In this document: piece by piece, positions 3,737 to 53,976 of the stretch
Layout of the letters: each line of letters starts with the position of its first letter
Numbering within the stretch: the first letter of the stretch is position 1
Assembly (NCBI GenBank): GCA_964016885.1
Contig: OZ024741.1
Location: 139,934,001 to 139,998,000 of the forward strand
DNA from: Eledone cirrhosa
Taxonomy: Eukaryota
DNA length: 64,000 nucleotides
Direction of reading: 5' to 3'
Program-made: the position numbers and the translations under genes
The notes under the pieces: model-generated
Seen by the model: the letters and a program-made list of their open reading frames with translations, nothing else
Told to the model about the DNA's origin: nothing
Database searches by the model: none

Positions 3737-3810
3737 TCACCTGATGAGATCAGTGATAATTGATCGTGATTTCACAAACAATCTTTCTCTTATTGAAACA
3801 TATGTCGTGA
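3737..3810 (+). ncRNA. Type-I hammerhead ribozyme candidate (family A; extended, irregular stem II)
   Basis: TCAC CTGATGA ... GAAA CATATG TC GTGA. Stem I is TCAC/GTGA, the loop-3 palindrome is ACATATGT and the site is GUC. Confidence 0.6.
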
Positions 3811-5624
3811 TTAAATGATAGGAATTTTACCTTGCCTTTGGATTTTCATTTTGATATATATATATATATATATATATATATATATATATATATATATATA
3901 TATATATATATGTTTTTGTGTGTGTGTGTGTGTGTGTGTGTGTGTGTGTGTGTGTGTGTGTGTGTGTGTGTGAATATATAGAATACAAAGATAAAGAGTA
4001 AGAATAGAAAGGAACGGGGAAAATGAGTAATTCTGGGTGTGGAGGTACACGTGCGTATTCAGTCATCCCCTTTAGATATTTGACGTCCAAGAAGTACCTT
4101 CCGTGTCATATAGGTTTAGGAAGGGAGGTAATCATTGTATATGTCAGGTAGACATGAATGCATCCATGCGTGTGTGAGTGTGTGTGTGCCTGCGTGTGTG
4201 TTTGTCTGTGTGTGCGCATGTAGGTGTTTTCGTATCTTTACTGCCGATTCTAGACTTTTGTGGGACGACTCTCTCTCTGAATATCTAAAGTTTTAATTGT
4301 ATCTCCATCTTCAAAAGGGCTTATTCCCCTCTCTCTCTCTCTCTCTCTCTCTCTCTCTCTCTCTCTCTCTCTCTCTCTCTCTCTCTCTCTCTCTCTCTCT
4401 CTCCCACTGTGTGTCTCTCTCTCTTCAGATGTGTGCATGTGTTTGTCCGTGTCTATGTGTGTAGTTTTCGTGTGGTTAAAATCCCCATCCAGCCAACCAA
4501 CAAACATCTCTCTTTTATATTATATATAGATTACGTGGTATGGTCGTGAGCGATGCTGCTTAGCTTCGAATACGACTATATGGTTGCGCAACCGTAAACG
4601 GCAAACCTACAAAGTGTGAAGTCACTGTATGCATGCAGGTGGACACAGCTAGGAAGTGGTGGGGTCAGATAAAGATTAGGAAACATTCAACTCCGACAGC
4701 ATCACATTTGCTTCACTAAACGCCACACCAAAACAGACGCGAAGGCAAGAGATGCAAGCACGCTTGAACCTGAGCTCTGAACAGTGTGTCGGTTGAGTGT
4801 GCGGGCATGTGCACATACCTATGCATGCATCAGTAAGTGTTGTATTTTGATAGTTATGTATGTGCAGAGGTAGATATGTGTTGGTTTGTATATGCGGATG
4901 TTTAGATGCGGTTGTGCATTGTGTGGTGGCTGCAGTTGTATGCGCGATTTTGTCTGAGAGTATAAAGGGTGGTTATAGTAACAGTGGGGAGAATTGAGTC
5001 GAATCGGAAGTTAAATAATGCTCGGTCACGGTACGAGTGGCTGTGGACCCGTGGTTTAAAATCTAGGGCTGGAAGAGTGAGGTGTTAATTAGAGTTGTTG
5101 AGTGAACGGAAGTGACGAGCAACGGTAGTGCATTTTCTTTACTTAGTCGTATATCCCTCAGGTGTTAGGTAAATCGATCCGCCAGACGGTGGCCGATTTA
5201 TCCGGTGTAAATGAATCCTTATATATATATATATATATATATATATATACAGTCGTGGTCCTGGCGCTTTTCCTATTACCCACGCTACTACCCTAAGTAT
5301 TGAGTAATATGGTGCGTTATGGTCCAGCTGGTATCTTACTACGCCCTCTTTGTTATATATATATATATATATATATATATATATATATATATATATATAT
5401 ATACTTACTCGGCGGTCTTATGTTATTTCCACTACTGAATTTCGCCCAGAAGTTAATGATGAATGCGAGATTTTATAGAAGGTAACTTCCCAAGGGATCA
5501 AAGAGCGAGAGTGGACTCAGTACCACTTGTTTGTAAGTGAACTCCTGATGAAACACTTACATTTGAAATCATATTCATATTTTTAAAAGCATTACTCGAA
5601 ATACTACTGCCAGATGAAGGTGAG

Positions 5625-6930
5625 TATATATATATATATATATATATATATATATATATATATATATATATATATATATATATATATATATGTCTATAAA
5701 TATATATATATATATGTATATAAATATATATATATATATGTATATAAATATATATATATATATATGTATATAAATATATATATATATATATATGTATATA
5801 TATATATATATATATGTATATAAATATATATATATATGTATATAAATATATATATATATATACATACATATATATATATATATATATATATATATTTATA
5901 TATATATGTATGAACATATATATATATGCATGTATATATATATGTATATAAATATATATATATATATATATATATATATACATACATATATATATATATA
6001 TATATATATACATACATATATATATATATATATATTTATTTATATATATATATATGTATGAACATATATATATATGCATGTATATATATATATATATATA
6101 TATTAATATATATAAACATATATATCATATATATACTATATATATTATATATATATATATTTATTATATATATATATATATATATATATATATATATATA
6201 TATATATATATATATATATATATATATATAAATATATTTATATTTATATATATGTATATATATATATATATATAAATATATTTATATTTATATATATGTA
6301 TATATATATATATATATATATAAATATATTTATATATATATATATATATATATAAATATATTTATATTTATATATATGTATATATATATATATATATAAA
6401 TATATTTATATTTATATATATATATATAAATATATTTATATATATATATATATATATAAATATATTTATATACACATATATATATATATATATATATTTA
6501 TATATATATATATATATGTATGAACATATATATATATGCATGTATATATATATATATATATATATTAATATATATAAACATATATATCATATATATACTA
6601 TATATATTATATATATATATATTTATTATATATATATATATATATATATATATATATATATATATATATATATATATATAAATATATTTATATTTATATA
6701 TATGTATATATATATATATATATAAATATATTTATATTTATATATATGTATATATATATATATATATATATAAATATATTTATATATATATATACATATA
6801 AATATATTTATATTTATATATATGTATATATATATATATATATATATGTATATATATATATATATATATATATATATATATATATATATATATATATATA
6901 TATATATATATATATATATATATATATATA
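5625..6930. repeat. Long compound (TA)n microsatellite with an internal ~460-bp-offset duplication
   Basis: Interrupted TA run. The ATGTATGAACATATATATATATGCATG...TAAACATATATATCAT block recurs at ~6054 and ~6516. Confidence 0.9.
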
Positions 6931-7649
6931 CACACATACATTCATATCGCAAAATTTTCGAAGCAAAGGAATATGTTTTATATTTCCATTTTTACATAAC
7001 ATTAAAATTGATGTATTTTTTACATACAAATGCCTGGAAATATTCACTGACATGTCTTTTTATAAGCTTCGTCAATTGTAGATTTCAATAACAAATCTAT
7101 TAACGCTGCCAAAGTTTGCATTATGTTTACTTTTAACTTTTTTCCTGTAATACATAATTACATAAAATGCATTCGTTTGTAATGTATATATGCATAATAT
7201 ACATATGAATGTACATATACAAATACATATGTGTGTGTGTGTGTATGTATATGTGTGTGTGTGTGTGTGTGTGTGTGTGTGTGTGTGTGTGTGTGTGTGT
7301 GTGTGTGTGTGTGTGTGAATAAATGTTTTTTTATATTTTTCCTCTCCACAGTTTTCTCTATCTTTCTATTTCTTCTGTTACTTCCCGTTCCAACTTTTGA
7401 CACTTTTCCTGCTATATCAAACTGTAATATAATACTTGCCTTCAATGTACACACACTTACACACACACACACACACACACACACACACACACACACACAC
7501 ACACACACACACACATACACGTGAGACATGTACAAACACGTGAGCAGGTACACATAATCATTGTTGTGTGATATGTTAGATATATCCTAAATTTCAAAGT
7601 TATATTTGTAAAAACTAATTTGCTTTCTATTTCTTTCTTTTTTTTTCAG

Positions 7650-7802
7650 CTCACTATTCAATCCTTGGTGTAACGTTTTATTTCACCAGAAATCTAGGAT
7701 TTTTCATTCTTCAAACCTATATACCTTGTTACCTAATTGTGGCGCTATCTTGGATATCGTTCTGGATCAACAGAGACGCAGCCCCCGCCAGAGTACTCCT
7801 CG
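7650..7802 (+). CDS. Internal exon of a Cys-loop ligand-gated chloride channel subunit (GABA-A/GlyR-like): end of extracellular domain, TM1, start of TM2
   Basis: Polypyrimidine tract + CAG acceptor (7647-7649) and GTAAG donor at 7803. The 153-bp phase-1/phase-1 exon translates as HYSILGVTFYFTRNLGFFILQTYIPCYLIVALSWISFWINRDAAPARVLL(G), matching the R..GYF.LQTY.P....V.LSW.SFW.....PAR signature of anion-selective Cys-loop receptors. Confidence 0.95.
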
Positions 7803-52013: not shown

Positions 52014-52056
52014 ACGGTGCTGATGATAGCTAACAAGCTTGAAACTAGTACATGGT
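52014..52056 (+). ncRNA. Type-I hammerhead ribozyme candidate (family L) in a ~290-bp element between (TA)n tracts
   Basis: ACGGTG CTGATGA TAGCT AACA AGCTT GAAA CTAG TA CATGGT. Palindrome ACTAGT, imperfect stem I. Confidence 0.7.
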
Positions 52057-52249
52057 TCCTGTGTCAGTGTTGAACAAAAAGGTGACGTGGTTGCCTTAAC
52101 ACCGTATGGCATAAATCAGGCTGTTCGCTTGTTTACAAACGGACGAAGCGGGCGTTATAATAAACGTTCGCTAAACTGATACGTACATATATATATGTGT
52201 ACCTGTATGTATATATATATATATATATATATATATATATATATATATA

Positions 52250-53099
52250 TATATAAATTAATATGTATGTGATGAAACACAGATACCAACACATCTGTAT
52301 ATATATTGCTAAGAAAAAGTTAGCCAGATTGAAGTATACTAATTATTATACTACAGTTTGTCCATATCGATTTAAAATAATAAATCAACGGAGACGAAAT
52401 GTATTGCCAAGAGGCCGTGATGTTTAGACACATTTAAATTTCAAAATTAAACCTGTTCCGTAGATAAGTTTAGACTTTAAGATCCAAATATGTTTCGAGT
52501 TAAATAAGTGTAGGAATATCATGTCCCGCTCTCCTCAGTAAACATCCAGAGACAAATTGATATGCTTCACTTCTAAATAATTTAAAAGACTGCGTGACGC
52601 ACATGGCTTTACAGTATCTAACTAGTCTCATAACCGTACTGCTAGAAATAACAGTCGTATATATGAGGCGGCTTGCAGCTCAAACTAGGAGCAGTTAAAA
52701 TTATTAAGGTAATGAATTATTTTACAATGGAATCAGCTCGAAGGAGGAAAAATACCCCCTGAGCAGTGTATAAATTAATATGTATGTGATGAAACACAGA
52801 TACCAACACATCTGTTTATATATTGCAAAAGAAAAATTTAGCCAGATTGAAGTATACTAATTATTATACTACAGTTTGTCCATATCGATTTAAAATAATA
52901 AATCAACGGAGACGAACTGTATTGCCAAGAGGCCGTGATGTTTAGACACATTTAAATTTCAAAATCAAACCTGTTCCGTAGATAAGTTTAGACTTTAAGA
53001 TCCAAATATGTTTCGAGTTAAATAAGTGTAGGAATATCATGTCCCGCTCTCCTCAGTAAATATCCAGAGACAAATTGATATGCTTCACTTCTAAATAAT
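52250..53099. repeat. ~330-bp direct repeat pair (52250-52580, 52768-53099) with ~190-bp spacer
   Basis: TATAAATTAATATGTATGTGATGAAACACAG...ATGCTTCACTTCTAAATAAT is duplicated with few differences. Confidence 0.9.
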
Positions 53100-53519
53100 A
53101 TATATATATATATATATGCACTTCTAAATAATATATATATATATATATATATGCATGCTACTGTACGTCTGTATACATATATGTATGTACGTATACATAC
53201 ATACTTACATATATATATATATATATATATATATATATATATATATATATATATATATATATGTATGTATATATATATATATATATATATATATATATGT
53301 ATGTATATATATATATATATATATGTATGTATATATATATATATATATATATATATATATGTATGTATATATATATATACATATATATATTTGTATGTAT
53401 ATATATATATATATATATATGTATATATGTATGTGTGTGTCTATGTATATATATATATATACATAGATGTGTTTGCATATGTTTATATATTGTAGGTATA
53501 TATATATATATATATATAT

Positions 53520-53976
53520 ATATGCAAAAGTTCTATTTAAATTGTTGGGATACAACAAGCAAATATTTTTATAACTGATATAAAGCACTCAACAAGTCTT
53601 TGGAGTAAACATACGATATTAACAAATGGAAACTATGTTTATAAAACCATATTTATTTCATTATACATATTTCAAGGAAACCAAGTTAAATTATGGTGTG
53701 CTTTCATCAGACAAAATATAATATAGATCAGTTTTATAAATAAATATTGACATACCCTTAAAAATGCAACCATTACTGTTGGAAGCTCCGGGCAGCTACG
53801 GGAGCTTCCAACAGTAATGGTTGCATTTAAGGGTATGTCAATATTTATTTATAAAACTGATATATCTTATATTTTATCTGATGAAAGCACACCATAATTT
53901 AACTTGGTGTCCTTGAAATATGCATAATGAAATAAATATGGTTTTATAAATATAGTTTCTATTTGTTAATATCGTA
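53520..53976. mobile_element. Family B fold-back in (TA)n; hammerheads at 53655-53717 (-) and 53871-53933 (+)
   Basis: ATTTTAT CTGATGA AAGCACACCA..TGGTGTCCTT GAAA TATGCA TA ATGAAAT. Arms centred on GGAAGCTCCGG..CGGGAGCTTCC. Confidence 0.85.

Follow-up and report, generated by a model that had tools for sequence, protein, structure and literature searches.

Why should a single intron of a GABA-A-like receptor gene be crowded with hammerhead ribozyme motifs, and does the gene have anything to do with them? In the window (the whole 64,000-nt stretch of Eledone cirrhosa DNA analysed here), 18 of the 19 motifs listed by a first-pass annotation lie in an intron of 54 kb (7803-61716), between two GABA-A-receptor-like subunit exons, both on the + strand and with splice sites read: 7650..7802 (about amino acids 222-274; tblastn 88% to P0121) and 61717..61916 (about amino acids 274-340; sequence match). 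All 19 are there, each with a core box (C3UGANG8A, or its U3..A8 form), a stem II, GAAA and the U16.1-H17 site, then the stem I partner. The core had been given as CTGANGA, which holds for 15; the remaining four (46453, 46514, 50762 and 51069) read TTGAAAA (U3-A8). Positions in the earlier list fall a few nucleotides ahead of the core on the + strand; on the - strand they sit close to the motif's 3' end. Stem I has at least four contiguous pairs in 11 of the 19, three pairs then a mismatch in two (46453 and 52020), and two contiguous pairs only in six (32677, 36398, 41223, 41354, 50762 and 51069), a group that includes the two youngest families.

Chance is the first explanation to be weighed: the DNA is AT-rich and repetitive, and the descriptor is short. 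In its strict form (stem I of at least 4 bp, stem II hairpin at or below -0.5 kcal/mol, loop III of 3-14 nt) it passes just 11 of the 19 listed motifs, giving 11 matches over the whole window, 8 C3-G8 and 3 U3-A8. The shuffled-control scan that had been proposed with the list (here 40 dinucleotide shuffles in 200-nt blocks) yielded means of 0.05 and 0.12 respectively, about 0.2 together, with a maximum of one each. A blind sample of 75 stretches of 10 kb (750 kb, strict descriptor, 12 shuffles) gave 81 matches against a shuffle mean of 4.0, so that about 4 of the 81 are expected by chance, a roughly 20-fold excess. Loop III, whose self-complementarity is no part of the descriptor, is self-complementary in 54 of these 81 matches, compared with 6 of 48 shuffle matches, and 12 of the 13 loop III types in the window self-pair (family E at 0.0 kcal/mol). 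Covariation had been expected in both stems. It was found in stem II of the A/C/D group, where eight of nine pairs change on both sides and 93.7% of cells are paired, against 85.6% after shuffling and no more than 58% after sliding; stem I of the same set varies on one side only. To be sure, this set was selected with a motif pattern and consists of related members, and folding of 12 single motifs was mostly no better than that of shuffles (z between 0.15 and -2.1). Taken with the sorting of the matches into families, the excess, the palindromes and the covariation refute chance, to which we leave a negligible probability.

The motifs had also been read as 19 independent occurrences from about 12 unrelated families. 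Twelve families were indeed counted, in 13 insertions, with four head-to-head pairs and one composite insertion holding three motifs ruling out 19 independent events. Each pair forms the two arms of one insertion, recognized as a self-inverted match: the family E foldback at 40973..41604 (98% identity between arms; motifs 41223 on the - strand and 41354 on the +, with a 2-bp stem I), two U3-A8 foldbacks at 46359..46608 (94%; 46453 -, 46514 +) and 50620..51211 (99%; 50762 -, 51069 +), and a family A foldback at 53608..53980 (93%; 53710 -, 53878 +). The composite insertion, of family B (13124..19061), joins an ORF-less 1.98-kb unit, with motifs 17109 and 13233 on the - strand, to an inverted arm with motif 18845 on the +; it contains an internal 0.7-kb duplication and is broken up by a short repeat (16645-16830) and a reverse transcriptase (RT) fragment (15500-16480). 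Single motifs matching the descriptor belong to families A (9301..9365, -, within an element at about 9177-9517), C (38941..39011, +, loop TGCGCA) and D (39353..39420, +, loop TATATATA). Minimal motifs with loop CG represent families J (32642..32685, -; a decayed stem I in this copy, against 4 bp in some others) and I (36390..36433, +; 2-bp stem I in all copies listed). A family H copy (51895..52178, +) has its motif at 52012-52058. Families A (9357, 53710, 53878), C (38949) and D (39361) are not unrelated, because they align with a mean column identity of 70%. Absent from the earlier list were a 518-nt tandem of family K inside the H copy's microsatellite (52256..53097, -; candidate motifs 53056 and 52538, 18-nt loop III) and decayed copies at 38533, 45774, 46039 and 56816.

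Is the ion-channel locus special, as had been supposed? That 18 motifs share an intron, 10 of them in sense orientation to the gene, might suggest that the host recruited them to control GABA-receptor pre-mRNA processing. Yet the density of 1.72 matches per 10 kb in the window is ordinary for this genome, lying between the 1.00 and 1.41 of the rest of the same gene and the 2.40 of a neighbouring gene, with 1.33 on the large chromosomes, and locus-specific enrichment was rejected. Identity between the window copies and dispersed members of their families is 94-100%. Solo motifs in the introns of three Cys-loop genes show no strand bias, 19 being sense and 16 antisense, or 15 and 15 when the window is left out, in a test covering 400 kb plus the window and 35 events, in which a mild bias would be missed. 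Recruitment by the host is very improbable.

What the window samples is a population spread through the genome. Its diversity, announced from this stretch, is borne out by the 28-29 sequence clusters among the 81 blind matches. The announced frequency of one motif per 3-4 kb holds for the window; genome-wide it falls to about one per 10 kb with the strict descriptor, or one per 6 kb when homology is included. Extrapolation from the blind sample gives about 2.7e5 motifs (1.9-3.6e5). As to arrangement, 36 of the 81 are head-to-head, none tail-to-tail, 5 direct and 40 solo, and a microsatellite lies within 300 nt downstream of 68, compared with 23% of control positions.

The origin of this population, attributed from the start to Penelope-like elements, is tied to them by seven of the 12 window families, which trace to the 3' end of elements coding for RT and a GIY-YIG endonuclease, two of them full length, with the motif 0.25-1.6 kb behind the RT + GIY-YIG frames. 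Family F illustrates this: the ORF of a GIY-YIG-type endonuclease end (1553..2200, +) is followed by a 3' UTR running to motif 3741 (3733..3814, +; stem II domain of 47 nt, loop CATATG, predicted cut after 3806), an arrangement common to 5 of 10 copies, with 150 copies scored of 57,559 candidates genome-wide. The family E foldback corresponds to the 3' end of a tandem element of 4117 bp (L191; 99.7-100% identity) with one motif per unit and a 1217-codon open frame with an Asn-rich stretch. The foldback at 50620..51211 is the 3' end of a young element (L194; 98-99%), built of an inverted arm followed by repeat, ORFs and repeat, where a 777-codon RT + GIY-YIG frame stands beside a separate 325-codon upstream frame. 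Names of domains rest on homologues of the 777-aa frame, which carry RVT_1 and GIY-YIG, and on motifs read by eye, as in the 1217-aa frame; a Pfam scan of six element frames and a PDB search with element frames returned no match. Parent elements show both the pseudo-LTR tandem and the inverted 5'-truncated copy, and in five families 5' ends are variable while 3' ends are fixed. With microsatellites masked, families A, D and G gave no ORF link among 53, 18 and 38 matches, with flanks mostly of 1.5 kb; for families I and J the link comes from one or two copies each. The family G motif (50305..50366, +, loop TATATA) has as neighbours a (TA)n tract and, at 48860-50158, a broken Penelope-like fragment; it was rejected as the end of that frame, from which a truncation point and a microsatellite separate it.

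Much of this is familiar. Metazoan Penelope-like elements are known to carry minimal type-I hammerheads in their pseudo-LTRs (Cervera & de la Pena 2014, PMC4209133), the molluscs Lottia and Crassostrea being among the hosts, and the class, its dimer logic, the U3-A8 core and opposite-strand pairs are already published there. In the sections of that report cited here, as in the present genome, the topology is type I, stem I is short, stem II long or bulged and loop III palindromic; the U3-A8 variant occurs, a genome hosts many families, most copies are single and a few sit in full elements, and opposite-strand pairs lie 100-700 bp apart. Many stem II domains here differ from the set described there, measuring 25-50 nt, with position 4 a C.C mismatch. 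EN+ elements with a C-terminal GIY-YIG (Craig et al. 2021, PMC8557442; 'tail' work, PMC11167929) likewise place RT before endonuclease and share 5' truncation, partial tandems, an inverted 5'-truncated copy, an optional 3' extension, microsatellite targets and a hammerhead near the 3' end. The 325-codon upstream frame and the 1217-codon Asn-rich frame set the present elements apart from what the cited parts of these papers describe.

Are most of the motifs nevertheless stand-alone non-coding retrozymes, spreading via self-cleaved RNA circles, as the first-pass annotation emphasized? Non-coding elements do exist: families B and H have ORF-less motif-to-motif units. Among 55 family H matches, 13 same-strand spacings are below 1 kb, and nine of these, with two rows standing for one locus, measure 465-529 nt between type-I motifs (a unit of about 0.47-0.53 kb, typically 0.48 kb, often tandem). 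Family K has a unit of 518 nt, a further family one of 478 nt, and family B one of 1981/1987 nt. The longest Met frames in H, K and B units are 36-81 aa; the 0.5-kb units have no long ORF and no match to a Penelope profile, and fold well as circles (z -4.1 to -7.5, microsatellites removed). H and K resemble non-LTR retrozymes in being non-coding tandems of about 0.5 kb, below 45% GC, with one type-I motif per unit that folds well when treated as a circle (PMC7229834; bioRxiv 10.64898/2026.07.22.740005, in part). However, a direct partner is found for just 5 of the 81 blind matches, seven of the 12 families in the window lead back to coding elements, and the H, K and B motifs look minimal rather than of the canonical retrozyme form given in the cited part of PMC7229834. 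The arrays are short (2-3 units per arm seen) and joined head-to-head like Penelope insertions, unlike those retrozymes, and the family B unit exceeds their 51-972 bp range (same two sources). The population had been called mostly non-coding: this stands for at least two ORF-less families, while seven of 12 are 5'-truncated ends of protein-coding elements, and retrozymes as the general explanation are distinctly unlikely.

We hold instead, with a probability of about 0.88, that these are minimal type-I hammerheads at the fixed 3' ends of Penelope-like copies, strewn over the genome 5'-truncated, often head-to-head and beside microsatellites, and that they are likely cut only as dimers in tandem parent RNA and likely inert as single intronic copies. 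Tandem parent elements would be transcribed; two motifs would pair through their palindromic loop III to build a stem III, allowing cleavage after U-H. Copying of the RNA into (TA)n or (CA)n targets by the element's RT/endonuclease would then begin close to the 3' end and usually stop early, and since the motif lies 100-260 nt from that end, it would be what is most often left. The same Penelope proteins probably also serve families B and H. In a host intron, a solo motif would have no partner, and the motif of a foldback would be enclosed in a long duplex.

Cleavage itself may be slow or incidental, the fold being kept for RNA dimerisation or recognition by an element protein. In vitro activity is low even for dimers (PMC4209133), 1 of 9 frog dimers was cleaved (bioRxiv 2026.07.22.740005), and for a lizard element insertion in vitro does without ribozyme cleavage: catalytic mutants still insert, and none of the reads in the cited part of that work stops at the cleavage position (PMC11167929). 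The 2-bp stem I of young families here points the same way. By contrast, about 28 unrelated clusters retain the C3-G8/U3-A8 pair, GAAA and U-H, with mismatched cores at chance level in the blind sample (3 C3-A8 and 3 U3-G8, against 1.6 and 2.3 in shuffles), which is what catalysis would demand. Upkeep of the fold for something besides efficient cleavage appears unlikely, and dimer-dependent cleavage in the parent RNA remains our preferred reading.

Because the class is known, the locus itself is ordinary; the new parts are the scale and the ORF-less units. The estimate of 2.7e5 is above the published counts found (9,000 in Xenopus, 4,000 in the coelacanth, about 2,000 + 1,300 in Schistosoma in the cited sections of PMC4209133; 126,247 in two families for the axolotl record, PMC7229834 and bioRxiv 10.64898/2026.07.22.740005, in part), though descriptors differ. 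In the open-licence literature no paper on cephalopod Penelope hammerheads was found; the giant squid annotation reports 235 hammerheads (PMC6962438) and an Octopus vulgaris repeat paper does not mention ribozymes (PMC13282606). An Rfam scan, which had also been proposed, gave 0 matches in the window at gathering score, no hammerhead family among 99 matches at E<=10 over 49900-54000, where several motifs lie, and none among the 150 listed of 343 matches in a further search. The Rfam miRNA matches are microsatellites and foldbacks.

Tentatively, and at less than even odds, the whole might amount to a hammerhead load larger than any counted so far (about 3e5 motifs that look intact, about 5e5 with decayed ones, invisible to Rfam), to direct anatomical evidence, from ORF-less 0.5-kb and 2-kb families that would insert with the Penelope signature of head-to-head inversion, 5' truncation and microsatellite targets, that Penelope proteins move animal retrozymes, and to some 8e4 near-perfect foldbacks as a major intronic source of double-stranded RNA. 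An estimate of several hundred thousand ribozymes, missed by standard RNA annotation, could matter, and young intact parents (L191, L194) alongside ORF-less passengers offer material on Penelope hammerhead function and retrozyme mobilisation. Heavy A-to-I editing is known in the host lineage. The abundant foldbacks are testable editing substrates and, if this holds true, would be a major source of double-stranded RNA in introns.

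The minimal type-I hammerhead motifs of the window are real and well explained, and they are of a kind already known. Core box, stem II, GAAA and U-H site are present at all 19 sites proposed by the first-pass annotation, and a strict descriptor (stem I of at least 4 bp) finds 11 matches, where 40 local dinucleotide shuffles average about 0.2. Stem I has at least 4 bp in 11 of the 19 motifs, 3 bp in two and 2 bp in six. Four have a U3-A8 core, a natural covariation previously described (PMC3088659, PMC4209133). An Rfam comparison of the window detected none of the 19 at the gathering threshold. 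Self-BLAST and unit mapping condensed the 19 motifs into 13 insertions from 12 families; the annotation had called its families unrelated, and A, C and D are relatives. Two candidate motifs of family K and four decayed copies had been overlooked. A lone U3-G8 candidate with paired stems (23908, minus strand) is likely due to chance or decay. The window, at positions 139,934,001-139,998,000 of contig C2 in the 3.0-Gb assembly (G000), includes two plus-strand exons (7650-7802 and 61717-61916) of a GABA-A-receptor-like subunit gene of about 345 kb, also on the plus strand; the subunit's closest named relative comes from Octopus bimaculoides (98% over 61 aa). The 53.9-kb intron between these exons holds 18 of the 19 motifs, and motif 3741 lies in the intron preceding exon 7650-7802. 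In motif density the window is ordinary, with 1.72 matches per 10 kb. In introns of three Cys-loop genes, solo motifs are sense in 19 cases and antisense in 16, hence no sign of harm to host transcripts.

A blind sample of 75 10-kb stretches at evenly spaced round coordinates (76 were chosen, one being absent) contains 81 descriptor matches (69 C3-G8, 12 U3-A8) in 28-29 sequence clusters, with 12 shuffles yielding 4.0 on average; mismatched cores stay near chance (3 and 3, versus 1.6 and 2.3). Of these 81 matches, 54 have a self-complementary loop III, versus 6 of 48 shuffle matches. An alignment of families A, C and D, built from sequence only with 26 of the 27 variant keys of that scan, has 93.7% of its cells paired, shuffles giving 85.6% and slid structures at most 58%. 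In stem II, eight of nine pairs are altered on both sides; one loop III pair switches from A-U to G-C, and stem I changes are confined to one side. All figures from this alignment are inflated, since the variants are related and were picked by pattern. Among 29 long-stem variants, stem II position 4 is paired in only 8 (neighbours, 20-27) and shows C.C in 15 (families A, B, C, D and G; e.g. window 50320-50346); it is possibly a tertiary contact site, an effect not separated from variant relatedness.

Coding parents are Penelope-like elements. A young element, whole at locus L194, has family 51069 as its end; at that locus an inverted arm is followed by a repeat with motif, frames of 325 and 777 codons, and another repeat with motif. 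Homologues of the 777-aa protein bear RVT_1 and GIY-YIG, the named eukaryotic ones being bivalve; the 325-codon frame, which is separate from the RT frame and upstream of it (L194:3839-4813), had no match in a Pfam scan. In family E, copies form the end of a 4117-bp tandem unit that contains a 1217-codon frame, and this frame terminates 255-277 nt upstream in 22 of 34 family E matches. At L191:1051-4701, a very young Penelope-like family forms tandem arrays of 100% identical copies, with a long Asn/His-rich insert in the 1217-codon frame and a motif with a 2-bp stem I. In match counts where some loci enter twice, shared DNA runs from the endonuclease end to the motif in F (5/10), 46514 (4/48) and C (4/19), and ties I and J on one or two copies; no link to that end was found for A, D and G, a sister of A being linked (2/16).

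Copies of five families have staggered starts and a fixed end 100-260 nt behind the core. Partners of the 81 blind matches are inverted upstream in 36 cases, direct in 5 and inverted downstream in none, and a microsatellite lies within 300 nt downstream of 68 (control 23%); the same anatomy is already published for Penelope-like elements (excerpts of PMC8557442 and PMC4209133). Near-perfect foldbacks of 250-630 nt occupy window 40973-41604, 46359-46608, 50620-51211 and 53608-53980, and also 55713-56006. Under the mechanism we propose, dimers in tandem parent RNA would be cleaved, element RNA would be copied from near its 3' end into microsatellites, copying would terminate early and inversion would arise. 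Published results weigh against the motif simply serving to cut: low cleavage activity in vitro (PMC4209133), dispensability for insertion in one system (PMC11167929) and a single active dimer out of nine in frogs (bioRxiv 2026.07.22.740005).

Families B, H and K lack a long coding frame. From motif to motif, B measures 1981 and 1987 nt at two loci, H about 465-529 nt and K 518 nt; the longest Met frames are of 36-81 aa, and a Penelope profile search of these units gave no match. With microsatellites removed, circular forms of H and K are well folded (z -5.0 and -4.1). Family B has staggered 5' ends and inversions, and H arrays are joined head-to-head upstream in the GABA-A-like gene (three minus units, two plus units) and at locus L009, so that both B and H likely spread by the Penelope route; a coding parent may exist elsewhere in the genome. 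A tandem pair of K (window 52256-53097) sits in the microsatellite of an H copy, and K relatives at loci L325 and L082 retain the core together with a loop III of 18 nt. A non-LTR element RT fragment (RVT_1; window 15500-16594, minus strand) is inserted in a B element.

Motif density per 10 kb is 1.33 on the four large contigs (C1-C4, 380-440 Mb) and 0.52 on smaller ones, a roughly 2.5-fold difference; weighted by chromosome class, the genome-wide estimate is 2.7e5 motifs (bootstrap 1.9-3.6e5). With homology-found copies, 750 kb contain 129 sites, one shuffle giving 0. The estimate exceeds the counts found in print, namely 126,247 for axolotl and more than 6,000 for coral (both in excerpts of PMC7229834), 9,000 for Xenopus (in the accessible text of PMC4209133) and 235 for giant squid (PMC6962438), but descriptors differ from the one used here and a record is not established. 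A repeat of very high abundance, some 190 nt long and SINE-like by size, occurs at window 10031-10245, 16639-16835, 24350-24550, 41950-42929 (in tandem), 51360-51571, 58396-59225 and 63724-63914. Head-to-head foldback insertions number 20 in 750 kb, or about 8e4 per genome, and foldbacks are candidate double-stranded RNA in introns. What makes this genome of interest is the scale of the population, its ORF-less passengers and its intact parents.
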